Assembly: GCA_024239035.1 (NCBI GenBank)
Contig: JANBVK010000001.1
Location: 42,262-106,261, forward strand
Length of the DNA stretch: 64,000 nucleotides
Origin: Patescibacteria group bacterium
GTDB lineage: Bacteria; Patescibacteriota; Minisyncoccia; UBA6257; GWB1-50-10
Reading direction: 5' to 3'
Below are positions 5,427 to 63,981 of the stretch, piece after piece. The stretch's first letter is position 1. Every line of letters begins with the position of its first letter. A model generated the notes under the pieces. The model saw nothing but the letters and a program-made list of their open reading frames with translations, had not been told where the DNA came from and searched no databases. The translations under genes and the position numbers were made by a program.

Positions 5427-6410
5427 ATGAACCAAGAATATAAAAAACTTAGAGTTGCGGTCTTAATGGGCGGGCCTTCAGAAGAGCACGAAGTGTCTTT
5501 GAAGAGCGGGGAGATGGTAGCAAATGTTCTGGATTCGGGTAAATACGAAATTAGAAAAGTTCTAATAAGCAAAGAGGGGGAGTGGGAAATTCTTCCTCAT
5601 CATTTGAAATCTTACGCCGACGTCGCTTTTATTGCTCTCCACGGGCCGTATGGCGAGGACGGTACCGTTCAGGACATGCTCGGCCAGGCGAACATTCCTT
5701 ACCACGGAACAGGTCCGCTTGAGAGCGCCTTAGCCATGAATAAATTTTTGTCTCTCCAACTTTTTCGGGACGCGGGGTTCGCCGTACCGCTTTCTTTCTT
5801 AATTACGGAGAAAGATTGGCAAAACGGACCTTCGGGCGTTTTGCGCCAGATTCAACACTATCTTGAGTTTCCATTCGTTGTTAAGCCGAATAATAACGGC
5901 TCAAGTTATGGGATAACCATCGTAAAGAATAAGAGCGATATCTCTCCGGCTTTTAATGAAGCGTTTAACGTTTCACAAGAGGTATTGATTCAAGAATACG
6001 TTGAAGGGAAAGAAGTTACCTGCGGCGTTTTGGACCATGGTTGGGCCGGCAGTGAGGTTGCTCTTCTCCCAACAGAAATCATTCCCAAGGTAAGCCACTT
6101 CTTTGACTACAAAGCTAAATATGACAAGGGTGGTTCAGATGAGGTTACTCCGCCCGAAGGAATGCCGGAACACACAATTCGTACCATTCAAAAAACCGCG
6201 CGGGAGATTCACAGGCTTGCGGGTTGTAAGGGAGTTTCTCGTGTTGATATGATTTTAAATAATCGCGGCCAACTTTTTATATTAGAAGTAAACACTCTCC
6301 CCGGACTTACGTCTGAAAGCTTACTGCCTAAAGCAGCTGAGGCAAGCGGGATTCCATTTACCACATTGCTTGACAGGTTAATTCATTCCGCGTTTCTTAA
6401 TTACTTCTAA
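5427..6410 (+). CDS. ddl: D-alanine--D-alanine ligase
   Basis: LRVAVLMGGPSEEHEVSLKSG ... ALHGPYGEDGTVQDMLGQANIPYHG; typical Ddl length and motifs. Confidence 0.9.
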   Translation: MNQEYKKLRVAVLMGGPSEEHEVSLKSGEMVANVLDSGKYEIRKVLISKEGEWEILPHHLKSYADVAFIALHGPYGEDGTVQDMLGQANIPYHGTGPLESALAMNKFLSLQLFRDAGFAVPLSFLITEKDWQNGPSGVLRQIQHYLEFPFVVKPNNNGSSYGITIVKNKSDISPAFNEAFNVSQEVLIQEYVEGKEVTCGVLDHGWAGSEVALLPTEIIPKVSHFFDYKAKYDKGGSDEVTPPEGMPEHTIRTIQKTAREIHRLAGCKGVSRVDMILNNRGQLFILEVNTLPGLTSESLLPKAAEASGIPFTTLLDRLIHSAFLNYF

Positions 6411-6411
6411 G

Positions 6412-7047
6412 ATGAGTTCCTTAGAAAAACTTATTAAAAGTTTAGTTGACGACGGCTATTTGAAAACACCGTCTATTATTGAAGCGTTCCAAAAAATTAA
6501 TAGGGTTGATTTCGTTCCTGAAGACCTGAAAGAGGTTGCCTATGAGAACAACCCGCTTCCTATCGGCTATGAGCAGACCATCTCACAACCGCTCACGGTT
6601 GCTTTTATGCTGGAGCTCTTGGAACCAAAGAAGGGAGAGAAAATTTTAGACATCGGAGCGGGGTCGGGTTGGCAAACGGCGCTTTTGGCGCACATCGTAG
6701 CAGACGGCGGGGGAAAGGTAATTGCTATTGAGCGCATTCCGGAATTAAAGACAATAGCAGAAGAAAACGTAGCCAAATATAATTTCCTGGAGAAGGATGT
6801 CGTCCAGATTATTCAAGGAGACGGATCTAAAGGACGTAAAGACAAAGCGCCGTATGACAAAATTATTGCGGCGGCCTCGGCAGACAAAATACCGTCCGCC
6901 TGGAAAGAGCAATTAAAAATTGGCGGTCGCATAGTCGCCCCGGTGGGTCAGAGCATTGTAATGATTGAAAAAACAGAACAGAATCAATTTGCTCAAAAAC
7001 AGTACTTTGGATTTAGCTTCGTGCCGCTTGTTAAGGGGAAAGTCTGA
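6412..7047 (+). CDS. pcm: protein-L-isoaspartate O-methyltransferase
   Basis: ILDIGAGSGWQTALLAHIV SAM-binding motif; QTISQP motif; 211 aa. Confidence 0.85.
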   Translation: MSSLEKLIKSLVDDGYLKTPSIIEAFQKINRVDFVPEDLKEVAYENNPLPIGYEQTISQPLTVAFMLELLEPKKGEKILDIGAGSGWQTALLAHIVADGGGKVIAIERIPELKTIAEENVAKYNFLEKDVVQIIQGDGSKGRKDKAPYDKIIAAASADKIPSAWKEQLKIGGRIVAPVGQSIVMIEKTEQNQFAQKQYFGFSFVPLVKGKV

Positions 7048-7867: not shown

Positions 7868-10845
<2,978 letters not shown>

Positions 10846-10896
10846 ACCTCTAAGAACTGATAATGTAAGCGTTAATGAGTTAGTTGAGCTCTTACA

Positions 10897-11010
10897 TGCC
10901 GGTGTTTTATCTACGCGTGTCCCACCTCATTCCATTCCGAACTGAGAAGTGAAAACGTGTAGATCCGATGATACTGAGCCTTGAGCTTGGGACAGTAGGA
11001 TGTGCCGGCG
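10897..11010 (+). rRNA. rrf: 5S ribosomal RNA
   Basis: CCGAACTGAGAAGTGAAAACG core; helix I gccggtg/tgccggc; flanking processing stem gagctcttaca(10886)/tgtaagagct(11011). Confidence 0.8.
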
Positions 11011-11036
11011 TGTAAGAGCTTAACTTTTACACTCCT

Positions 11037-21186: not shown

Positions 21187-21573
21187 TCACACAAAAGAAA
21201 TTCCCCATTCAATTAATCTAATAATCAACCTAAGCGACCATACAAAGAAATTAGCCACCACCCGGATAATTTCACGAAAACTCACCCCGATATTATCCTC
21301 AAGCCAGTTGTTTATATTATCCCAAACCCCTTGTACATATGAAAAAAACTCACCGGGTGTAAGAACAATTGTAAAGAAAAAGTCTTTAATGTTCTCTAGC
21401 GTCCTTTTTAAAAAAGATCCGCCGCCAACGTCAATATCAACCCGCACTTTACTGAACGTGTCCACTAATTCGGTTACCGGTTCCGGTATGTCTTCTAATG
21501 AAAATTCCTGAGCCAAGCCCATAAATGGAATGCCAATTGCTATTAAAATTATAATTGCGAAGGTTTTAATCAT
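21187..21573 (-). CDS. small secreted/membrane hypothetical protein
   Basis: N-terminal signal-like helix; 4-nt overlap with upstream M23 peptidase gene suggests an operon. Confidence 0.4.
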   Translation of the reverse strand: MIKTFAIIILIAIGIPFMGLAQEFSLEDIPEPVTELVDTFSKVRVDIDVGGGSFLKRTLENIKDFFFTIVLTPGEFFSYVQGVWDNINNWLEDNIGVSFREIIRVVANFFVWSLRLIIRLIEWGISFV

Positions 21574-22937
21574 CTTGCATCATCAAGTGAAGATAATTGT
21601 CTGCTGTTCGGCAGATAATCCGCAGGATCAATAGTTACTCCCACTGGAACAAACCCCGCCGCCGGAGCGATCTTTTTATACTGAATGCTCGGCGCCCAAT
21701 ACAGACCAAAATGAAGGTGCGCCCCGTAAGAGTAGCCTGTGTTGCCTGAGTAGCCAATCAAATCCCCTCTTTGCACAGTATCCCCTTCTTCTACAACAAC
21801 TCGCGAAAGATGCGCATAAAGCGTGCTTAGATTATTCTCGTGTTCAATCACAACATATCTGCCATATTGATATCTTCGCCACCGCGATGTTCCCTTATCA
21901 TTATTGTCCACCGCCGCCACCTTACCGTAAAAAGCGGCTAAAATAGGCGTGCCAAGACGAGCTCTAAAATCAACGCCGGTATGTGTCTTGGTTCGATATG
22001 CCCTTTGGGCAAACTTCGTCGGTCCATAATATTGCGTTATGAGCGGCTCTTCAACCGGAAAACCAATAACACCCGGTCGTTTTAGGGGGAGTAAACTTGG
22101 ATCAAAAGCTGCCCGCAGTTGGTCTTCAAATTCTTCTATTATCCGACTGATCTCTTCCTGTTTTTCATCAATTTCAGCAATCTGGCTCTCATAAACCCTC
22201 TCCTGATTTTTTGTTTGAGCAAGTACCTGATTTTTATAGTCTTTTTGGTCTCGAACAATATACTGCCGGTTTATCAAATTAGAACCTTCAATCTTCTTAT
22301 TCCTTTGCTTGCCCTGCTCCTCACTTAATTTCTGAACCATTTCATATTGAAAATTTCTTAGCTCCTCAGCGCTAACAGTTAAATCGCTATTCAAGGTTAC
22401 AATGGATTGGGCCTCAGAAACGCTCTCTGCTAAGCTCTTATTCTTTAGAAAAATTATCAGTATGTTTTCACGGTCTCTCTGCTGCAGTTCCACCATCAAC
22501 TTCGCAACGGTAGATTTCTTGTTTTGAATGCTCTCCTCAATACTTCTAATATCTCTTCCTAAAGAGGTAATCTCTAAATCAAGTCTTTCTAAAATTAATT
22601 TGTTTGCCTTAATGGAAAGATTGAGCTGGTTGATACTGTAATCAATAGTTCTTATCTCTCTTACAAGCGAGTTTTTTTGTTTGCTTGTCTCTTCTAAGTT
22701 TTTCTCAACCTCTTCCCGCTCTTCCAAAATTTTCTGGAGCAGGGTGTTTCTATTCTCAATCTCCTGCCTTAAGCTCTCAGCAGTAGAACCATTGGGTGTC
22801 ACCTCCTCCGCTGTATCTTCCGAACTGTCCGATGAATCGGCCTGTGAAAAAACCGGGTTCGCAGAAAATAACAAACCCACGACAAGAATGACGGATAATA
22901 AATAACGAAAAGTACGTTTTGTTAATTCTTTATTCAT
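21570..22937 (-). CDS. M23 family metallopeptidase with N-terminal coiled coil (EnvC/LytM-like murein hydrolase or activator)
   Basis: HTGVDF...; C-terminal YAHL...GDTVQRGDLIGYSGNTGYSYGAHLHFGLY; long coiled-coil N-terminal region; signal peptide. Confidence 0.8.
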   Translation of the reverse strand: MNKELTKRTFRYLLSVILVVGLLFSANPVFSQADSSDSSEDTAEEVTPNGSTAESLRQEIENRNTLLQKILEEREEVEKNLEETSKQKNSLVREIRTIDYSINQLNLSIKANKLILERLDLEITSLGRDIRSIEESIQNKKSTVAKLMVELQQRDRENILIIFLKNKSLAESVSEAQSIVTLNSDLTVSAEELRNFQYEMVQKLSEEQGKQRNKKIEGSNLINRQYIVRDQKDYKNQVLAQTKNQERVYESQIAEIDEKQEEISRIIEEFEDQLRAAFDPSLLPLKRPGVIGFPVEEPLITQYYGPTKFAQRAYRTKTHTGVDFRARLGTPILAAFYGKVAAVDNNDKGTSRWRRYQYGRYVVIEHENNLSTLYAHLSRVVVEEGDTVQRGDLIGYSGNTGYSYGAHLHFGLYWAPSIQYKKIAPAAGFVPVGVTIDPADYLPNSRQLSSLDDAR

Positions 22938-51148: not shown

Positions 51149-54100
51149 TTATTTCCTCCAATACACCTTAAAATTCTCAATTTCAGAAACTAACTCTTTT
51201 GCCGATTGGCCGTTGTACTGAATAGCTCTATCATCCACATATACATATGCAATGGGTTTCCCTGGGTTCTTTCCCTGCAATTCCAGATTGTGATTGATAA
51301 AATCAAATGGAATTGAAAACTTTTTGCAGTATTTTTCTAAAAATTCATTCCCCCGTGTTGAATGAATCAAGATCCGGTATCCCCTCTCCCTTAATGTTTT
51401 GATTGTCTCTACTACCTCCTGTATTGGCTCTTTAATATCGTCCGGGGACACGAAACCGGTATATTTAGCGATTGTTCCGTCAAAATCAAAAGCAATAATT
51501 CTTTCTTTAGGCACAGGGTTAATTCTACTATAACAGTCAAACGAGTGAACCGATACATTAGGGATTCTTTGGAATATTTCTTTGACTTCTGATAAATTCT
51601 TCGCCTTATCATTGTCAACAACCAGTAAAATCCCGTGCGACGCGCCGAAACCGTATATGTATCGGCTCATACTGACATACGAGGGAGATCGATCTATTTT
51701 TGTACCTTTGAGATCAGTACTGGAGGTGAGTTTAGTTTCGACCACAATGGGGCCAACGAAACCATATCTAACAAGGAAGTCTACCTTTTTACCGTCAAGT
51801 AGTTCTACCTCTCTATCTACATCAACTTCAAAGCCACGTTTTAACATAATTTGTTCGATTTTCGATTTGAGAGTCTTCTGAATAAGCTTCTCGTACGCCT
51901 GCTGTTTCGCGTCGTAAACCTTTTCACCAAGTATGAGGTCGTACGCGCCCTCGCCCTCAATCCACCGCCTCAAGTCTGTTTCCAGAGCGTCTTGAAGCTG
52001 TCTAAATAGGTCTGTAGAGGTTAATATCTTCTTATCATCATACGCTCGGGCATCATTGTATTTCTTTATTGCTTCTGAAATATTACGGGGTTTGCCTAAA
52101 TAGCCTAGATAGGACCGCCGGAGGTTTATCATCCGACTGGCAAGCCAATTCGCTCCGTCTCGGTCTTTCATTTCGGCAATTTTTCTCTCAAGCTGCCGCA
52201 GGGGATCGTAAACACGTTCGTCCTTTAGATTATCAAAGTATGCGTACACTATGCTCCAAAGATACTCCGCATACGCCTGAAACTCCTTGCTCCGGGCGAA
52301 TACACCCATGGCTTCCTCCAATAATTTAAGGTAGTCTGGTTCATAGCCATGGTGTTTGAGATCCATGAGTGGCTTAGCAAAACTCTTGCTGTGCTCTATT
52401 TCTTCTTCAAGACTATTTACTTTGTGCATGCCTGGGAGTCGTATGAATGCTGCTGCCCTTTGAACCACTTCACGCAACCGCCACTTGATTGCCTCTGCGT
52501 CACCCTGGGAAGTAATGAGGAGCCCATTGGCAATGTAGGCAAGTTTTTTCTCGTCCTCATTTTTACTTTCCTTGTAGAGGTTGAATATTTCTTTAAGGAA
52601 GGTGGGGTCAGAAGAAAGCGTACCAACGACGGTGAGTGATTGCTCCCGAGTGTATCTGTCGAGAGCGGATTCTTTAATGAAACCTTTTAGAATAGGGATA
52701 GCTTCAACGACATGATATTGCTCTACTGCCTCCACGAAGCTAGAAGTCATATGTTGCCAGAGATCCGATTTTCTACTTTTGTACACCTTAAGCACTCCCT
52801 CCATTTCTCCGGGCTTTATATCTTTTACTAACTCAAAGATAGTTTTGAGTTCGTCGTTGTAAGCAAAGGGAATGAAATTGAGGATATTCTGCCGAAAAGG
52901 GGTTATATCAATTTCAAGATGCTTTGCGGTAACGAGAGCGTCACCGAACACGAACACTGAACTACTGGTCGTATAAGTCTTGGAGCCGTCGTGTTGCGCT
53001 GTGATGGTAAGATCGTGCTTTACGGGGTCAACGAATTTGAAAATCGTACCTGTGATGAGTTCGGCAAGACGCTTTTTCTCATCGGTCGACACGAGGGGTT
53101 CTAGGCACTTGATATTTTTATTGTAAAACTCAAATACGGAATTACTGAATTTCCCTGGATTAGGTTCCAAAAGTGTCCGAAATTGTTGCAGGAGCTTTTC
53201 ATTCTGCATTTCGGTATGCGTATCCGGTTTTGCGCGTGCCTCCTCCCACTGCTTATATTCCTCGGAGAGCAGGGACCGGCCAGCTTCGTATATCTCATTA
53301 GCCCCTTCTCTTTTCGAGAATTTCATCCTTGACATGACTGAAGCCGCGGAGTCTTTCTCTCCCATTGCAATCATTACTTCGATATAGCGCGGCACGTCTT
53401 CTTTCTCAATAACCTCCGCAAAAAATCTGTGCGCGAAATACAGACCAGTTTTGCCATCCTCGCTTTTCTTTATACGCTCGACCATTTCGGTGACGAAATT
53501 CGGGTCGCCCCTCCGCAGAAGTTTCCACAGACCAACGATAAACGTGGAGTGCTCCGCGTCATGTGCGATGTTGTAGTTTACGGAGCGCACCAGCGTCTCC
53601 TTGCACAGCTTTTTTATTTCGTCGTCAAGAACAGCTTCGATGTGTTCAACAAGTACGTGGTCTTCATCCTGGAATATCCGCGTATCGTTGATGAACTCGC
53701 GCCGGAAGTTCTCATCTACGTTGTACGTTTTTAAAAAGCTCTCTATCGAAGCTCTTTTCTTTAATGCGAAAATACCGTACCTACCGTGGAATTCGTTTCT
53801 CCTGATAGCCTCGAAAAAGTAACCAAGGGATTTTGGATTTTCAGGATTGAGCTCCACACACATATCGAGAAATTCCCTCCTTACAAGCTCGTCCGACTCC
53901 ATGAGATTGGGCAGTTCATCTATGACCGACGGATCACGCAGCCATGTGAGCGCCAGGAGCGCGTGCCGCTGCAGCACGCCGTTTTCGTTTTTGTCGCCCG
54001 CGTACTCGATGAGTTTGCCGCGCCAATATGACCGATCTAACGAGACACCCCGTCTAAACAGGTAAGCGATCACGTAGACGATGTTTCCGAGCGGCACGAA

Positions 54101-55504
54101 ACGAGCAGCATTTTTTTCTTTATCCGCTTTTGTGATTCCCGCTTTAAGTTTTCCCTCAAGCGTGTTGTCGAAAAAGCTTGGTAATGCTGAAGTGAGTTGG
54201 CCGGGCAACCATTGCAGAGTTCGCTGATGGTAATCCATAGCAAGTATAAATATCTGACGTCGGAGTTCCAATGGTACGTTGCGCGGATCTACCCTACTTA
54301 GAAACACCAAGAAACCCTCGTCGATAAGCTTGAATTGTGTGCCGCGCAGGCCCGAAAAATCAACAAGTTGTCCGAGTAAATCCGGCCGCATGTCTACCAA
54401 GAACGTCAGCGCGTTAAACCATGTTGGGTACATTTCTTTAGCGTCAGGGTCGATTGCAAAGCCAGCCGCCGCCCGGTTTGGATCGGGAAAGCGCGATATC
54501 TCTTTGGCGGCGAGATACTCTTGAAACTCCGTATTATCAAACTCGACCGTGTCCACATTATTTTTCAGCAGAGATTTATCGAAGAAAATTTCAAGTTCAA
54601 TTTGTGTGAGAGCCACAAGTTTTAGGTCAGATTTTATTTCGTCGAAAAAAGTCATAAGCTCATCCTTAGAGATTACATTTGTTTGGTATATCTCCATGGT
54701 GAGGGCGAGTTTTTCCAGCACACGCTTTATGATGGCACGTTTGTCAGCATTAAGTTTCTTATCTTCGAGTTCAAGCTTCGAGTAAATGAAATACTCGAAA
54801 AGTTTGTTGCGTGAGACCTCAGCAGCGGCTGGGATCCCTTTTTCCTCCAAGAATTTCTCCAGATATGAAAGGTATCGAGGTATCTGTATAACGAGCATTC
54901 TATGACTGAAAGGCATAATCCGACCCAGCAACGCGTCTATGTCGCTATCGGAATGTTTCGCTGCTCGTAGATACTCCCGTACCTGCCCTTGAGTGAATGG
55001 AGAAATAGTTATGAAACGGTAGTTGGGAAATGACGTGGCGTGTTGGTTAATAAAAATCCACCGAGAGGACAAAAATATAGGTAGGTTGGGATACCTAGTG
55101 GAAACCTCCTCGATTTTTTGCAGAACCGCTGGAAACAAGCTTGACTGAACCTCGTCCAGAGCATCTAGTAAGAGCGCTTTTGGTGCTTCAGTTTCAGTCG
55201 TCACAAAAATGTCAATGCGATCCATGGCGTTTGGTTGTCGAAGACCAACCAGCTCCGTCACACACCCATCCGTATCAAGTTGATCCTTTATCTTGCCGAG
55301 AAGCATAGATTTGCCAACGCCCGGTTCTCCCACAATTAGAGTACGCTGGCCTTTAATAATATCTACAATTCCAAGGCGTTCCTCGTCGTCAAAAATTGAG
55401 ACTCCTTGGAATTTATCGTAAAACTCCTTAGCCTCGGCGAATATCGAGTAGATCTTTGTGATAGGGATGATGTATTTATCAGCACTATTAATTTTTGTAG
55501 TCAT
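51149..55504 (-). CDS. 1451-aa NACHT/STAND-type NTPase fused to C-terminal PD-(D/E)xK nuclease-like and HAD phosphatase-like modules
   Basis: Walker A GEPGVGKS; Walker B LLLDALDEV; FLSSR (TSR-like); about 900-aa helical repeat region; VDFLV...VVETK (D..E-x-K); IIAFDFDGT / ILIHST / GKP...YVYVDDRA (HAD motifs I-IV). Confidence 0.8.
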   Translation of the reverse strand: MTTKINSADKYIIPITKIYSIFAEAKEFYDKFQGVSIFDDEERLGIVDIIKGQRTLIVGEPGVGKSMLLGKIKDQLDTDGCVTELVGLRQPNAMDRIDIFVTTETEAPKALLLDALDEVQSSLFPAVLQKIEEVSTRYPNLPIFLSSRWIFINQHATSFPNYRFITISPFTQGQVREYLRAAKHSDSDIDALLGRIMPFSHRMLVIQIPRYLSYLEKFLEEKGIPAAAEVSRNKLFEYFIYSKLELEDKKLNADKRAIIKRVLEKLALTMEIYQTNVISKDELMTFFDEIKSDLKLVALTQIELEIFFDKSLLKNNVDTVEFDNTEFQEYLAAKEISRFPDPNRAAAGFAIDPDAKEMYPTWFNALTFLVDMRPDLLGQLVDFSGLRGTQFKLIDEGFLVFLSRVDPRNVPLELRRQIFILAMDYHQRTLQWLPGQLTSALPSFFDNTLEGKLKAGITKADKEKNAARFVPLGNIVYVIAYLFRRGVSLDRSYWRGKLIEYAGDKNENGVLQRHALLALTWLRDPSVIDELPNLMESDELVRREFLDMCVELNPENPKSLGYFFEAIRRNEFHGRYGIFALKKRASIESFLKTYNVDENFRREFINDTRIFQDEDHVLVEHIEAVLDDEIKKLCKETLVRSVNYNIAHDAEHSTFIVGLWKLLRRGDPNFVTEMVERIKKSEDGKTGLYFAHRFFAEVIEKEDVPRYIEVMIAMGEKDSAASVMSRMKFSKREGANEIYEAGRSLLSEEYKQWEEARAKPDTHTEMQNEKLLQQFRTLLEPNPGKFSNSVFEFYNKNIKCLEPLVSTDEKKRLAELITGTIFKFVDPVKHDLTITAQHDGSKTYTTSSSVFVFGDALVTAKHLEIDITPFRQNILNFIPFAYNDELKTIFELVKDIKPGEMEGVLKVYKSRKSDLWQHMTSSFVEAVEQYHVVEAIPILKGFIKESALDRYTREQSLTVVGTLSSDPTFLKEIFNLYKESKNEDEKKLAYIANGLLITSQGDAEAIKWRLREVVQRAAAFIRLPGMHKVNSLEEEIEHSKSFAKPLMDLKHHGYEPDYLKLLEEAMGVFARSKEFQAYAEYLWSIVYAYFDNLKDERVYDPLRQLERKIAEMKDRDGANWLASRMINLRRSYLGYLGKPRNISEAIKKYNDARAYDDKKILTSTDLFRQLQDALETDLRRWIEGEGAYDLILGEKVYDAKQQAYEKLIQKTLKSKIEQIMLKRGFEVDVDREVELLDGKKVDFLVRYGFVGPIVVETKLTSSTDLKGTKIDRSPSYVSMSRYIYGFGASHGILLVVDNDKAKNLSEVKEIFQRIPNVSVHSFDCYSRINPVPKERIIAFDFDGTIAKYTGFVSPDDIKEPIQEVVETIKTLRERGYRILIHSTRGNEFLEKYCKKFSIPFDFINHNLELQGKNPGKPIAYVYVDDRAIQYNGQSAKELVSEIENFKVYWRK

Positions 55505-56062: not shown

Positions 56063-56305
56063 CTACTCTCTTTTAACTAAATCTAACTTCTTTTCTCTGC
56101 GCCAACCTTTTATCTGTGCCTCACGTTTTAATGCCTCATTCTTCGTCTTGAATGTTTCTGTGTAAATAATCTTTTCTACTTTATGCGATGCAGTATAGTG
56201 ACCACCAATCTTGTCTTTGTGTTCCTTAAGTCTCCGTTCAATATCATTCGTGATACCGGTATATAAGCTAGCGTCTTCACATTGAACAATGTAGACATAG
56301 TACAT
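56063..56305 (-). CDS. GIY-YIG nuclease family small protein (UPF0213-like)
   Basis: MYYVYIVQCEDASLYTGITNDIERRLKEH (GIY..YIG with R and E); 80 aa. Confidence 0.75.
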   Translation of the reverse strand: MYYVYIVQCEDASLYTGITNDIERRLKEHKDKIGGHYTASHKVEKIIYTETFKTKNEALKREAQIKGWRREKKLDLVKRE

Positions 56306-56410: not shown

Positions 56411-56481
56411 CTGCCGGGCAGGGATTCGAACCCCGATACCCAGGACCAAAACCTGGTGTCCTACCGTTAGACGACCCGGCA
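56411..56481 (-). tRNA. tRNA-Gln (anticodon TTG), no encoded CCA
   Basis: Minus-strand cloverleaf TGCCGGG...CCAGG-TTTTGGT-CCTGG...GGTTCGAATCCC...CCCGGCA; U1:A72 typical of bacterial tRNA-Gln. Confidence 0.75.
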
Positions 56482-56496
56482 AATACAAAAAACCTA

Positions 56497-56536
56497 TTTT
56501 AAAATTCTGACACAAATCCCCGTTTCTAGCAATTTT
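56497..56536. repeat. 40-bp conserved element tttaaaattctgacacaaatccccgtttctagcaatttt (copy 1), immediately upstream of tRNA-Gln
   Basis: 37/40 identical to 59491-59530, which lies upstream of purB. Confidence 0.7.
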
Positions 56537-59490: not shown

Positions 59491-59530
59491 TTTCAAAATT
59501 CTGACACAAATCCCTTTTTCTAGCAATTTT
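59491..59530. repeat. 40-bp conserved element (copy 2), upstream of purB
   Basis: See copy 1 at 56497-56536. Confidence 0.7.
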
Positions 59531-59653
59531 ATGCAATAAAAACCTAACGGCTCAACGAGGATTATCGTTGAGCCGTTCAGATTACCATCCCCCACATCTT
59601 CGCTTTGAAACTATAAATTTCAGACCGACCCACAAAAGCTTTATACTGTTAAG

Positions 59654-60157
59654 ATGGACGAACTAAAATTAATATACGACGAAGACCAGAAAGACAGGAA
59701 AGAAAAATTGTGGGAAAGAGATAGTAAATTGTTTGTAAAAAGAGACAAGATCAGACTAGAAAGAATTCTACAACTAATTAAAGAGAACAAACTCCGCTCT
59801 CCAGCGGATTACCTTCATGCGGCAATGATTCTCCAACACGGCAAAGAAACTAAACATTATGAACTCGCTCATGAATTTGCAAAAAGAGCCGCGGATAAAG
59901 GTTACACGCCACAAAAAGGAGAGGTGGATCCTTTATGGCTTTCCGCCGCCGCAAAAGATAGAGCACTCATGTCACAAGGGAAACCCCAACTCTATGGCAC
60001 CCAATTTAGAAAAAAATCACCAGATGGACCTTGGCATCTCTATGAGGTTGATCCGACCGTGACGGACGAAGAACGTGCTAAACTTCACGTCCCTCCTCTC
60101 ATAACAGCAAAAAAATGGACTGAAGAATCAAACAAATCAGAAAATGAGAAAAAATAA
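59654..60157 (+). CDS. hypothetical protein
   Basis: 167-aa charged ORF, no motif recognised. Confidence 0.35.
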   Translation: MDELKLIYDEDQKDRKEKLWERDSKLFVKRDKIRLERILQLIKENKLRSPADYLHAAMILQHGKETKHYELAHEFAKRAADKGYTPQKGEVDPLWLSAAAKDRALMSQGKPQLYGTQFRKKSPDGPWHLYEVDPTVTDEERAKLHVPPLITAKKWTEESNKSENEKK

Positions 60158-60230: not shown

Positions 60231-61424
60231 TTATCTATAATATCTTTTTCCTTGACCTTCGGGAAAACTGTTCGGACAAATTCCACTAGAAGAATAAACA
60301 ACATCCATTGTCTCGTCATCAATTAACTTGAAATAAACCCATCCTTCCGCATCACCAAAGTTAGGATAAAATTGATAACAATGATTATTAGTAACATCTT
60401 TTAGATCTTTGTACGTAGGGTTATTTGGATAAATCCAATGGGTGTTTTTATCGCCTAAACGCCCTATCGTAATTCTTTCTTCATCTCCCACAATTGGAAG
60501 AACGCTTCCATAATCTCCATCTTGGTAATATTCATAGAAACTTGTTAATACTTCCTTATCCAAAAACCACTGCCCGGAAATTGTTCCGGGAAAATCTCTG
60601 GAAACAGGTCCGCATTCTTGAACTTCAAACAACGTTCCTCCTCCACCTCCAATCAAATTATAATAGGCTTCTTTTTTCTCTCCGCTGTAAAAATCATAAG
60701 GGCAAACAGCATGCAATAAATTACTTCCACGTCCTGCTTCCTGCCTTTCTTGATTAGCAAACTGATTCACAACATTTATGTCATGAACTATAAAATCAAT
60801 TCCTGGACCTGCTGAATCCTGAATAAAATATGCAATTAAATCTCCTGCTTCAAATTTAATAGGATCTAACTGCGCTCCCCTACTATCTGATTTAACCTCA
60901 GGCAATTGCTGTGCAACGGAATCAACAACTTCTTTTAAATGAGAAAAAGACATTGTAACACCACATCCTGCATCGAAACTCAAAGCATAATCAGGACTCG
61001 AAGCATAATCAGGCAAATATCCTTCTTTTCCCGTAACCAGGTCCGGGTAATAGCGGCTTCCATATGTTAAAACCATTTCAGTAGGAGCATAAATAGGGAC
61101 TTTCTCTGTGCTATTTTTATTTAAGTCAATATAAACTCTCCCTACAGTATACTTTCCAGAACCGTGAACGCCCCCTATCTGCGTAACTTTCTGAATATGA
61201 ATTGGATCAACAAAATACTCTGTAAACTCAAAATTCTCACAATTTTTATTTTCAATTACTTGCCTTCCCTCTGTTATCTCACCAATATTATTTTCTTCTA
61301 CTCCTCTTTCACGATCATCAAAATCACTTGAAAAAGAGTCTTGTTGGGATTGAAATATAAAAATTACTCCTACTACTAGAAGAACTATTACGATCACAAT
61401 GCTGATTATCAAGTTTCTTTTCAT
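60231..61424 (-). CDS. secreted/membrane-anchored paralog family protein 1 (Cys-containing extracellular domain)
   Basis: N-terminal anchor MKRNLIISIVIVIVLLVVG; shares CP.D.Y, QW/NWF and YCY...C motifs with the next two genes. Confidence 0.6.
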   Translation of the reverse strand: MKRNLIISIVIVIVLLVVGVIFIFQSQQDSFSSDFDDRERGVEENNIGEITEGRQVIENKNCENFEFTEYFVDPIHIQKVTQIGGVHGSGKYTVGRVYIDLNKNSTEKVPIYAPTEMVLTYGSRYYPDLVTGKEGYLPDYASSPDYALSFDAGCGVTMSFSHLKEVVDSVAQQLPEVKSDSRGAQLDPIKFEAGDLIAYFIQDSAGPGIDFIVHDINVVNQFANQERQEAGRGSNLLHAVCPYDFYSGEKKEAYYNLIGGGGGTLFEVQECGPVSRDFPGTISGQWFLDKEVLTSFYEYYQDGDYGSVLPIVGDEERITIGRLGDKNTHWIYPNNPTYKDLKDVTNNHCYQFYPNFGDAEGWVYFKLIDDETMDVVYSSSGICPNSFPEGQGKRYYR

Positions 61425-61449
61425 GGTTCTACTTATATATTATAAAAAT

Positions 61450-62667
61450 CTATCTTCCATATAGAGTGGGAGTCTTAAAGCTATAAGATCCCGAACAACT
61501 ACCAGATTGATGTTCAATTTTCAAATCTACATCACTGGTTAATTCCACAATTATCCTCCCTGATAAATCACTCCATCCAAAATTCCCTGCCTTTAAATTA
61601 TCATAGCAATAGATCTTTCCATCTGCCTTCACTTCATCAAAATCACGGTTAACGGTTCCTGAATGAGCCGGTACAAATTTCCAGAAATTGGCATCTGTAA
61701 AAACACCGCCTACTGAAATGACCTTATAATTTGGATCATCACTTGAGTGGACAAAAGAAAGATGCTCATCCCAAGGTCGAACTTGGTTGCTATCACCAAA
61801 AAACCAATTTCCCTGGAGCGTTGCAGGAACGTCCTGCGAAACCACACCGCACCTTGGGGCTTCCTCACGAGCAATTTTTCCGTAAAGCTCCGCTTGCACC
61901 TTTTGTTCAAAGTAATCAAGCGGACAAACAATATAAATAGATCTTTCGCCACTATACCTGTCCATATTTACATATTCTAAAAGGGTACGCGTATCATATG
62001 TTCCAAGATCAAAATTTCCTTGTAAATGTCCAACGCCTCCAATTACAGTTCCCGCAGCTACTTTGTATGATATTCTTTTCTCACAAGAATCATCTCCTCC
62101 AATGCCAAATTTTGTGCACTTCACCTTATTCAATTCCTCTTTCAAACCATCAGAGATTTCCTTCACATGATTATAATAACCATGAACGTCTTTACATAAT
62201 GAGAATTTAATAGAGTAATCTTTCCTGTCCGGGGCCATAAAATCAGAATTAGAGGTAACACTCGTTATAACAATGTCTCCCGGCGCTCTAAGAGGAATAA
62301 TTTCGGTTGTTAATCCCTGTTCATTGACGGCAATATAGATATGCTCGGTTGGGAACGTATGACCCGGAGGATGAAGACCTCCCAAGGGAGAAATGTCGTC
62401 AATTTCATCTAAGTCAACAGGAGAAACGGTGAAAAGTTCTTTTTTATCTCCACAAGAAGGAATGTTATTATTACTGAGAAGCTTTCTTTTTGCAGCATTG
62501 ATAAAATCAGAGATTGGTTTTGACTCTTCATCAACGTTTTCCTGAAAATCACTACTTTCACCAGAGTCTTCATATGTTTTAAACAAATTTGAGTTATTAA
62601 ATAAAAAAAATCCTCCAACGGCTAAAACCAATACTACTACAATTCCAATTATTAAATTCTTTTTCAT
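61450..62667 (-). CDS. secreted/membrane-anchored paralog family protein 2
   Basis: MKKNLIIGIVVVLVLAVGG anchor; PPGHTFPTEHIY, CPLDYF, QGNWF, IYCYD...C motifs. Confidence 0.6.
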   Translation of the reverse strand: MKKNLIIGIVVVLVLAVGGFFLFNNSNLFKTYEDSGESSDFQENVDEESKPISDFINAAKRKLLSNNNIPSCGDKKELFTVSPVDLDEIDDISPLGGLHPPGHTFPTEHIYIAVNEQGLTTEIIPLRAPGDIVITSVTSNSDFMAPDRKDYSIKFSLCKDVHGYYNHVKEISDGLKEELNKVKCTKFGIGGDDSCEKRISYKVAAGTVIGGVGHLQGNFDLGTYDTRTLLEYVNMDRYSGERSIYIVCPLDYFEQKVQAELYGKIAREEAPRCGVVSQDVPATLQGNWFFGDSNQVRPWDEHLSFVHSSDDPNYKVISVGGVFTDANFWKFVPAHSGTVNRDFDEVKADGKIYCYDNLKAGNFGWSDLSGRIIVELTSDVDLKIEHQSGSCSGSYSFKTPTLYGR

Positions 62668-62670
62668 TTT

Positions 62671-63981
62671 TTATCTGTTATATACAGTAGGGTTAATGAA
62701 CTTATAGCCTCCATTACAATCTCCGCTTTGATGTTCAATTTGCAGTTCTGTATCGCTAACCAATTCAATAATTATCCTGCCTTCGGGTTTTTCTTGACCT
62801 GTCCTACCGGGATCTTCGCCTTCGTAACAATAGATGTTTCCATCTGCAGTTACATCGCTAAATTTCCTATTGAAAAATCCTGTGTTCTTAGGCACGAATT
62901 CGTATTTTCCCGGACCCGTGAAACCTCCATCTATGGATATGATAATTTTAGACGGATTACTATTATCATGAACGAATGCAATGCTGTTTTCCCAGTCTCC
63001 TTCAACCTCACCAATAAACCAATTACCTTGTAATGTTCCCTTAATATCTTGCATCACTTCCCCACACTTTGGGTCGATACCACCAGTCACCTTATCATAA
63101 AGTTGCTGCCTCAACGGATCATCATATAATTCAATGGGGCAAACTACCGACCATCCTTTAACTTCACCCCGTTCAATAAAATATGGGATGCCATATCTTA
63201 AAGGATTGGCGTAGTTTAACCTTGTTCGATAATCATACGTACCAAAATCAACCTGGCCATGATGAGCGCCAACAGTACCCAGCACAGTTCCTGCTTTGAC
63301 CTTATATTGTAACTCTCTTGAACATAGGTCATTTGATTCTGTATACCAACTAGCACAATCAATATCCTTCACTGCTTCTCTGATCTCTTCTGAGAGCGTA
63401 CTTAAATGCCCGAAGTAACCGAACACATCCTTACATAACGCGAATCTAATACCTCGATCTATTTTGTCCAAATCTTTAGAGCCAGATACATCAATGATAT
63501 AGACATCCCCTGGTGCGACTAGCGGAACCTCCCCATCAATACCAAAGTACATATGCTCGGTAGGAAGCGTATGCCCCGGAGGGTTAATGCTCCCAAGTGG
63601 AAAAATATATTCAAGATTATTTACATCAACAACAGGAACTGTAAATGTCTGACCATCACATTCAGGCAGGACAGATTCCTCAACTTCTGTTTCCTGCTCG
63701 GCTAAATCGCTTTGTTCGTCAATTGGCTCTTCTTCAACATTTTCTTGAGAACCACTGACTTCACTAGAACCTTCGTCGTTATTACTGAGAGGCTTTCTTT
63801 CCGCAGTATCGATAAGATCAGAGACTGGTTTTGGCTCTTTATCAACGTTTTCCTGAAAATCACTACTTTCACCAGAATCTTCATATGTTTTGAACAAATT
63901 TGAGTTATTAAATAAAAAAAATCCTCCGCCAATGACTAAAACCAATACTACTAGAATTCCAATTATTAATTCTTTTTTCAT
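62671..63981 (-). CDS. secreted/membrane-anchored paralog family protein 3
   Basis: N-terminal about 65 aa nearly identical to paralog 2; PPGHTLPTEHMY, CPIELY, QGNWF, IYCYE...C motifs; acidic linker insert. Confidence 0.6.
   Translation of the reverse strand: MKKELIIGILVVLVLVIGGGFFLFNNSNLFKTYEDSGESSDFQENVDKEPKPVSDLIDTAERKPLSNNDEGSSEVSGSQENVEEEPIDEQSDLAEQETEVEESVLPECDGQTFTVPVVDVNNLEYIFPLGSINPPGHTLPTEHMYFGIDGEVPLVAPGDVYIIDVSGSKDLDKIDRGIRFALCKDVFGYFGHLSTLSEEIREAVKDIDCASWYTESNDLCSRELQYKVKAGTVLGTVGAHHGQVDFGTYDYRTRLNYANPLRYGIPYFIERGEVKGWSVVCPIELYDDPLRQQLYDKVTGGIDPKCGEVMQDIKGTLQGNWFIGEVEGDWENSIAFVHDNSNPSKIIISIDGGFTGPGKYEFVPKNTGFFNRKFSDVTADGNIYCYEGEDPGRTGQEKPEGRIIIELVSDTELQIEHQSGDCNGGYKFINPTVYNR

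Follow-up and report, generated by a model that had tools for sequence, protein, structure and literature searches.

In the lpl tandem lipoprotein cluster of Staphylococcus aureus, a conserved nucleotide block is a site of homologous recombination, which shuffles the variable parts and alters the number of units (Tsuru & Kobayashi 2008, PMC2568036). Here, we describe an array of tandem genes for secreted paralogs in a 64,000-nucleotide (nt) stretch of the tiny genome of a Patescibacteria group bacterium (assembly GCA_024239035.1, contig JANBVK010000001.1, positions 42,262 to 106,261; "the window" is this whole stretch), three of which, P1, P2 and P3, occupy window positions 60231-63981. The lpl recombination block (PMC2568036) appears to be the closest documented precedent for this array. 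In both cases a conserved block recurs in tandem secreted paralogs, here as a leader that is 83–94% identical at the nt level in four genes against ~50% elsewhere; the segments have incongruent histories, and strains differ in unit content with junctions at the block. In lpl, the block is central and the unit spans two adjacent open reading frames (ORFs), whereas here the block is the 5' leader and the unit is the whole body; moreover, the lpl products are Lpl lipoproteins, whereas the array proteins are predicted to have an M23 fold.

Further known systems are relevant. The fold is shared with the M23/LytM metallopeptidases (LytM, lysostaphin, ShyA, NMB0315 and Csd3; PF01551), but the array proteins are missed by the Pfam model and by sequence search of the PDB. 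In the degenerate LytM factors (EnvC, NlpD, DipM, SpoIIQ and Csd2), conservation of the site has been lost, whereas the array family has a new His/Asp/Asn set that is 94–100% conserved. The vlp, vsp and vsa families of Mycoplasma combine near-identical signal-peptide 5' ends with divergent mature regions; they also conserve the 5' untranslated region and promoter, and vary by phase switching and repeat expansion. In the array, by contrast, upstream sequences are not conserved, the genes lie in one apparent operon, and the bodies are conserved enzyme-like domains.

ORF calling in the window gave three consecutive minus-strand ORFs of 397, 405 and 436 amino acids (aa), in agreement with the three genes of about 400 aa reported in an initial annotation made from the sequence alone:

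60231..61424, minus strand: P1, a 397-aa paralog of the "P1-type" subfamily with a type-B leader and a two-domain architecture (ORF; family hidden Markov model (HMM) E 2.3e-62)
61450..62667, minus strand: P2 (KJI72_00655), 405 aa, with signal anchor, linker, predicted M23/LytM-fold domain and calycin-like barrel (ORF, AlphaFold2 model, fold searches)
62671..63981, minus strand: P3 (KJI72_00660), a 436-aa two-domain paralog with a longer acidic linker (ORF; family HMM E 3e-144)

P2 is a 100% match to the corresponding NCBI protein of the metagenome-assembled genome (MAG). The N-termini of all three proteins read MK(K/R)xLII, followed by ~20 hydrophobic residues, an acidic low-complexity linker and a Cys-rich body; the initial annotation had likewise described a signal anchor, an acidic linker and a Cys-containing domain. 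Its list of motifs held in full for P2 and P3 (CPLDYF/CPIELY, QGNWF, IYCYD/IYCYE, YGR/YNR and PPGHTFPTEHIY/PPGHTLPTEHMY, respectively), whereas P1 carries variants (CPYDFY, SGQWF, NHCYQ and YYR) and, in the motif comparison of P1–P3, lacks the PPGHT..H motif.

The array runs past the window end, as had been anticipated. We added 10 kb beyond it to give a locus in gene orientation (L001, in which position 10001 equals window 63981), so that the context covered was 21 kb for called genes and ~74 kb for the leader motif. Three further paralogs and an amidohydrolase gene were found there, making seven co-directional genes in the order G538, G411, G278, G251, P3, P2 and P1, with intergenic gaps of −4, 1, 1, 15, 3 and 25 nt. 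The first, G538, encodes an Amidohydro_2 protein with its own MKKLLIL... anchor; G411 (KJI72_00675) is a full-length paralog, and G278 is a truncated one with the N-domain only. We consider it fairly probable that this is an array of anchored M23/LytM-fold proteins in an apparent operon, with old bodies and a leader module that has been homogenized and reassorted by recombination. The six genes after G538 are predicted to encode N-terminally anchored, extracytoplasmic, disulfide-bonded proteins with an M23/LytM-fold core.

The AlphaFold2 model of P2, built with 86 homologs, scored well (predicted local distance difference test (pLDDT) 89.2; predicted template modelling score 0.84) and comprised a transmembrane (TM) helix at residues 2-26, a disordered linker at 26-46 and two beta domains:

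61948..62460, minus strand: P2 N-terminal catalytic-type domain, residues ~70-240, predicted M23/LytM fold, with conserved H103, H109, H167, N218, D220 and D225
61453..61947, minus strand: P2 C-terminal domain, residues 241-405, a predicted disulfide-containing beta-barrel with weak calycin/lipocalin-like similarity only

All of the top 40 Foldseek matches of the N-domain were M23/LytM structures, and the model has the characteristic M23/LytM beta-barrel fold. The initial annotation had held that placement in a well-known housekeeping enzyme family would speak against its view. The fold is indeed that of cell-wall hydrolases, but the family is not a canonical member. The C-domain modelled alone reached a pLDDT of 89.3, and this calycin-like barrel, distinct from SH3b, LysM and other peptidoglycan-binding domains, occurs in four array proteins (G411, P3, P2 and P1). 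The array family also differs from M23 in an extra near-invariant H103 and in eight Cys conserved across the family.

By sequence, the relationship is remote. Searches of Pfam, NCBIfam, PHROG and PADLOC models and of PDB sequences gave no match for P1–P3, and G251 gave only a weak PHROGs/PADLOC "metallo-endopeptidase" match. Aligned with the single LytM sequence (hhalign), the family matched over one strand only. We therefore used an M23 profile of eight sequences, namely LytM, lysostaphin, zoocin A, 6JMX, ShyA, Gp16, the window ORF at 21570-22937 and one locus protein, of which LytM and lysostaphin were verified at 100% against the PDB. Against this profile, the family N-domain aligned at E 1.5e-5 with 57% probability, and G251 at 77% probability. 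G278 was linked to the family by HMM (E 5e-11) and by hhalign to the family N-domain (97% probability). The hhalign alignment suggests the following correspondence of LytM residues with P2 numbering:

LytM H210: P2 H109
LytM D214: P2 position 113
LytM H260: P2 H167
LytM H293: P2 D220
LytM H291: P2 N218 (or a gap)

The pattern at these positions is consistent with a large, unnamed, Pfam-invisible family in which the canonical M23 residues (H-x3-D, H and H-x-H) appear to be replaced by another conserved set. Among 86 sequences, H103 was found in 85, H109 in 85, H113 in 72, H167 in 86, N218 in 81, D220 in 86 and D225 in 84. In place of H-x3-D (LytM H210 and D214), the family has H109 with residue 113, His in 72/86; in place of H-x-H (LytM H291 and H293), it has N218-F-D220 (N218 in 81/86, D220 in 86/86). 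In the local copies, residue 113 is A for P2 and its orthologs, G for P3 and Y for G411. P1 has R and D at P2 positions 109 and 113; its motif 1 reads R96-S-Y98 in place of H103/H109, with H162, D210 and D215 kept. This P1-type subfamily comprises at least 67 proteins from DPANN archaea and the Candidate Phyla Radiation (CPR), in which R96, Y98, H162, D210 and the Cys residues are invariant. The putative replacement set would therefore be H103, H109, usually H113, H167, N218 and D220 in the P2 type, and R96/Y98/H162/D210 in the P1 type.

These features leave two ways to picture the products, as surface-displayed envelope or peptide hydrolases or as non-catalytic partners, in either case probably working with the amidohydrolase. 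The array may encode non-catalytic factors of the LytM type (adaptors, activators or adhesins, like EnvC/NlpD, SpoIIQ and Csd2), an idea to which we give some weight while doubting it. The canonical HxxxD/HxH residues are absent, the local copies have further departures at H113 (P2 type) and H103/H109 (P1), and EnvC, SpoIIQ, DipM and Csd2 were among the top structural matches. A canonical M23 peptidase is also encoded elsewhere in the window (21570-22937, minus strand; 455 aa; PF01551, 98.7 bits; HTGVD...HLHF motifs intact), so the genome holds an ordinary M23 enzyme as well as the divergent family. On the other hand, four His/Asp residues at the equivalents of the M23 site are 99–100% conserved among the 86 sequences, a pattern that fits a functional metal site better than a relic. 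Furthermore, no LysM, coiled-coil or other partner-binding domains were detected in the proteins, the 21-kb locus has no amidase gene, and the array is linked with a hydrolase gene (Amidohydro_2).

The array of anchored M23/LytM-fold proteins is further characterized by its leaders, which comprise the signal anchor and acidic linker and fall into two types:

62468..62667, minus strand: P2 leader module, type A, 200 nt from the ATG, a putative recombination or conversion tract (maximum chi-square breakpoint; synonymous divergence (dS) 0.12-0.135)
63776..63981, minus strand: P3 leader module, type A (alignment, breakpoint scan)
61290..61424, minus strand: P1 leader module, type B, signal anchor and acidic linker, ~45 codons (six-leader alignment; paired with the G251 leader in repeat family D4)

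In a codon-aware comparison, P2 and P3 were 85–95% identical at the nt level over the first ~65 codons and 46–68% thereafter. The maximum chi-square scan placed the breakpoint after P2 nt 200 (window 62468); the two genes are 91.5% identical up to this point and 55.2% beyond it. The chi-square of 92.2 at the breakpoint was reached by 0/1000 permutations, the largest of which gave 19.0. A 35-nt exact match was seen twice, with 0 expected. The ~90% identity over the 5' ~200 nt claimed in the initial annotation is thus borne out, and divergence along the genes is far from uniform; its inclusion of the upstream region in the block was mistaken. Identity starts at the ATG, and the bases upstream do not align because the sequence upstream of P2 is the 3' end of P3.

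The type-A leader (MKKxLIIGI..VLVLAVGGFFLFNNSNLFKTYEDSGES.DFQEN) is carried by G411, G278, P3 and P2 and is 83–94% identical at the nt level over the first ~124 nt. G251 and P1 carry the type-B leader (..LFQSxxDSFS.D.DF; 75% nt identity), and the P1 leader is related more loosely to those of P2 and P3 (61–64% nt). Leader type is not tied to body type. G278 and P2/P3 share 90% identity in their type-A leaders, although the G278 body is only ~24% identical to that of P1 and ~25% to that of P2; the bodies of G411 and G278 share only ~24–36% aa identity with P2/P3, and P1, with the full-length architecture, bears the type-B leader. By the Nei-Gojobori method, leader dS was 0.12-0.135 between P2 and P3, 0.44-0.51 between G278 and P2/P3, and ~0.7 between G411 and the others, whereas body dS was saturated throughout (1.4 to undefined). 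Since synonymous sites of the leader are conserved too, constraint at the protein level cannot explain its identity. Within the ~74 kb examined, the leader motif was confined to the seven array genes. A 68-aa leader query against a collection of 5.8 billion proteins had no match, its source protein included, most likely through its shortness and bias.

Contigs from other samples show the leader in other combinations. Four of them (L082, L083, L084 and L086) carry orthologous bodies. In L082, the 3' end of G538 runs straight into a G251 ortholog (94.6% nt), and G411, G278, the P3 body and P1 are lacking; its remaining gene is a chimera, with 30 nt upstream of P3 type, a leader that is a site-by-site mosaic of P2 and P3, and a P2-type body (90.6%). 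In L083 and L084, a singleton gene joins a P2-type body (87% and 84% nt identical, with similarity starting from P2 codons ~50 and ~69) to the 5' region and leader of G538. L086 has the order P2-ortholog, P1-ortholog, G538-leader fragment and G538-type amidohydrolase, and its P1-type body bears a G538-type leader; in a further contig, L085, the P1-type body has an unrelated N-terminus. The strain junctions lie at the leader/body boundary, at P2 codons ~50-69, and both the number of units and the pairing of leader and body vary between strains. The variation in copy number and content across strains that the initial annotation had suggested looking for is therefore present.

The leader thus acts as a DNA module of its own, homogenized within the array and reassorted between strains. 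The mechanism acting between leaders was probably homologous recombination or gene conversion. In this way the first 45-68 codons (signal anchor and acidic linker) would be homogenized among array genes, and crossovers at the leader would add, remove or re-head whole gene units. Since head-to-tail genes share the block at their 5' end, each crossover would leave the genes intact, with another leader or an altered copy number. The recent gene conversion or cassette-like 5' exchange proposed in the initial annotation is supported and strengthened by the low leader dS (0.12), by the saturated and non-monophyletic bodies, and by the chimeric strains. In an archaeon, two adjacent Woesearchaeota paralogs (L011 125-2628) bearing lipobox signals (…LTAC TTTIIEETE…) show the same leader effect more weakly: nt identity is 80% over their first 30 codons and drops to 50–60% after.

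Leader identity might instead reflect a constraint on RNA or DNA, such as an mRNA structure, an initiation ramp or a site for a small RNA or protein, with no recombination involved. The genes are translationally packed, so that 5' coding sequence could affect initiation, and the leader is very AT-rich. However, the leader RNA was less structured than shuffled controls (z = +1.36), the region had no Rfam match, and the block extends from the ATG on, to the exclusion of the ribosome-binding region. The L082 mosaic and the G538-type leaders on the L083, L084 and L086 bodies show physical exchange, and show that the specific leader sequence is dispensable. We regard such a constraint as improbable.

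A different history would be that the genes arose by a recent tandem duplication, after which diversifying selection rapidly changed the exposed bodies and purifying selection kept the leader. The head-to-tail order and the bodies being alike at the motif level only would fit this account, but the age of the bodies does not. Body dS is saturated where leader dS is 0.12, meaning that synonymous sites of the leader have been kept, and the same leader stands on G278, whose body is ~24% identical. In a neighbor-joining tree of bodies (86 sequences, 336 columns, 100 bootstraps), P2 and P3 were sisters in 0/100 bootstraps, and a P2/P3/G411 clade was recovered in 0/100. The nearest body relatives of P2, P3 and G411 were foreign proteins, apart from P2's own orthologs, and for P2 and P3 these were mostly from DPANN archaea: P2 and P3 bodies share 38–44% aa identity with each other, and each shares 46–51% with DPANN-archaeal homologs. 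Orthologous P2 bodies compared between strains had a ratio of nonsynonymous to synonymous divergence (dN/dS) of 0.13-0.26 in the N- and C-domains. The bodies are old, separately diverged lineages under ordinary purifying selection, and the diversifying bodies under selection envisaged in the initial annotation found no counterpart in the dN/dS comparisons: the paralogs are ancient rather than fast-evolving. Recent duplication with diversification is accordingly very unlikely. The distribution of nearest relatives suggests inter-domain transfer of the P2-type and P1-type subtypes.

The flanks of the array bear on its expression. No strong terminator was found inside the array in the terminator scan, and the two strongest hairpin terminators of the region are copies of one sequence that bracket it:

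59491..59585 (= L001 14397-14491), minus strand: ~95-nt hairpin-terminator and promoter-like TGCTAGAAT module, downstream copy (repeat families D6/D9, terminator scan, pattern searches)
L001 5520-5613, outside the window, just upstream of G538: the other copy of the ~95-nt terminator and promoter-like TGCTAGAAT module

Each module consists of a strong 13-17-bp hairpin followed by the promoter-like TGCTAGAAT (extended −10) element. The two are direct repeats 8.9 kb apart, one 5' of the first array gene and the other 5' of a Lyase_1 gene. Given the tight gaps, the lack of a strong internal terminator, and the flanking terminator and promoter-like modules, the most economical reading of the sequence is that the seven-gene array forms one transcription unit. 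Between the repeats, and convergent with P1, lies a 167-aa ORF (59654-60157, plus strand) with weak DUF6624 and Sel1-like matches only; it has no leader and is outside the family. A third copy of the promoter-like half (window 56507-56535, minus strand) precedes a tRNA gene at 56411-56481 (minus strand), which a stand-alone 80-aa GIY-YIG-domain ORF (56063-56305, minus strand) adjoins.

Programmed surface variation, whether phase or antigenic variation of the Mycoplasma vlp/vsp kind or targeting by a diversity-generating retroelement, has its appeal in a multigene family with a conserved 5' leader, differing exposed bodies and strain differences in unit content. Nevertheless, no gene had a conserved upstream promoter, homopolymer tract or invertible segment of its own; the local leaders lack Cys, and the repeat scan revealed no internal tandem repeats. 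All the repeats that it did find belonged to the leaders, to stretches of conserved motifs or to the flanking terminator module; none formed a template/variable pair, and the called genes in the 21 kb included neither a recombinase nor a reverse transcriptase. One apparent operon would mean co-expression, and the bodies are conserved, enzyme-like and under purifying selection. Such programmed variation seems hardly likely. Finally, chimeric joining of strain variants during assembly or binning, conceivable in a MAG because repeats can mis-join contigs, is close to negligible, given that the leaders are 83–94% rather than 100% identical, that their longest exact match (~35-50 nt) is below typical assembly k-mers, that the locus lies inside a 729-kb Patescibacteria scaffold, and that four independent samples and assemblies contain these modules as well.

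Several observations weigh against the reading of an M23/LytM-fold array with a recombining leader. The Pfam Peptidase_M23 model had no match at E <= 1 for P1, P2, P3, G411, G278 or G251, while the window ORF at 21570-22937, taken as positive control, scored 98.7 bits; the family profile had no match among PDB chains at E <= 10. The assignment of ligands on LytM takes its register from a weak hhalign alignment (57%) and beta-strand alternation, not from coordinates, and is accordingly tentative. Because H113, found in 84% of the family, is lacking in all local P2-type paralogs and P1 is without both motif-1 histidines, catalysis may be lacking in some or even all of the local copies. The strain contigs are metagenomic, from presumably related strains, and so short that the events they record may be either deletions or insertions. 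Many carriers of the family are archaeal or without peptidoglycan-bearing partners, and peptidoglycan is hence not an assured substrate. In addition, neighborhood clustering, in which antisense ORFs of the family gene itself made up the majority of clusters, yielded no universally conserved neighbor.

The family itself is widespread. An exhaustive profile search returned 2,612 representative clusters at E <= 1e-3, of which 936 were at E <= 1e-30. Named members, like the genome loci, are mainly from DPANN archaea (Aenigmat-, Woese-, Nano-, Micr- and Pacearchaeota, and Diapherotrites), with further archaeal members in Hadesarchaea, an Asgard MAG and Poseidoniaceae. CPR members belong to Saccharibacteria, Parcubacteria, Sungbacteria and Woykebacteria, and other bacterial members to Dehalococcoidia, other Chloroflexota, Gemmatimonadota, Acidobacteriota, Gammaproteobacteria and Bacteroidota (including cultured Niabella hirudinis). 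The particular relevance for episymbiotic CPR cells suggested in the initial annotation therefore does not hold as a CPR-specific link, the family being present in many free-living phyla as well. In most members elsewhere, a lipobox signal takes the place of the TM anchor. No relatives were found in 2.9 million viral contigs. In a homology-based survey, just 10 archaeal genomes were reported to hold the zoocin-type M23 domain (PMC12356512); such a survey would have missed the array family.

Arrays of this kind are uncommon in the family: 4/80 loci were multi-copy, with at most two copies each, and P1-type and P2-type genes co-occurred in 2-3/80 other loci, too rarely for the pairing to serve as evidence. 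An Amidohydro_2 gene adjoins a family gene in Woesearchaeota (L019 5904-7661), SAR202 (L045 6864-7553), Dehalococcoidia (L054 6170-7567) and a related CPR bacterium (L086 2007-2828), which suggests a recurrent pair of amidohydrolase and M23-like genes across both domains. In L054 (~9200-11023), immediately downstream of the family gene and the amidohydrolase, a Pfam-valid Peptidase_M23 domain (residues 125-216) is fused to a G278-like domain (436-557; 39% identical to G278), and this context repeats the local trio of amidohydrolase, family and G278-like genes. We considered the match of G278 to this fusion protein as a sequence bridge to canonical M23 and rejected it, as BLASTP places the match in the second, G278-like domain (436-557), outside the Pfam M23 domain (125-216).

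Elsewhere in the window, a 1451-aa ORF (51149-55504, minus strand) a few kb from the array encodes a large uncharacterized protein with faint Pfam matches (ATP-synt_ab and DUF8371). The 23S and 5S rRNA genes lie at 7869-11011 (plus strand), and no 16S rRNA gene was detected within the window; since protein-coding ORFs (5427-7047) sit directly upstream of the 23S gene, 16S appears to be unlinked from the 23S-5S pair.

The fold class and segmental concerted evolution are known. What is new is an unnamed family, predicted to have the M23 fold, with an apparently re-wired site and a calycin-like C-domain, together with a clean example of a portable recombination module in the form of an export/anchor leader. 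A more ambitious interpretation, which we put forward as a speculation that may well prove wrong, is that the family forms a new M23/LytM branch with a re-wired metal or catalytic site (His-His-Asp for His-Asp-His) and a calycin-like lid, which inter-domain transfer has spread through DPANN archaea, the CPR and further phyla. Partnered by a secreted amidohydrolase, it would belong to a new extracellular envelope- or peptide-degrading system, and the portable leader would let an episymbiont cell rapidly change the number and kind of enzymes it displays.

For annotation and orthology calls that rest on N-termini, the behavior of the leader is a caution; it is also a natural example of sub-genic concerted evolution that mediates the gain, loss and re-heading of enzyme genes. 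With its conserved, re-wired site, the family lends itself to testing whether ligands can be swapped in a classic metallopeptidase fold. A family of ~2,600 clusters, with many DPANN archaea among its named members, would add to the proteins that may act on cell walls in archaea and CPR bacteria, whose host attachment and feeding are poorly understood.

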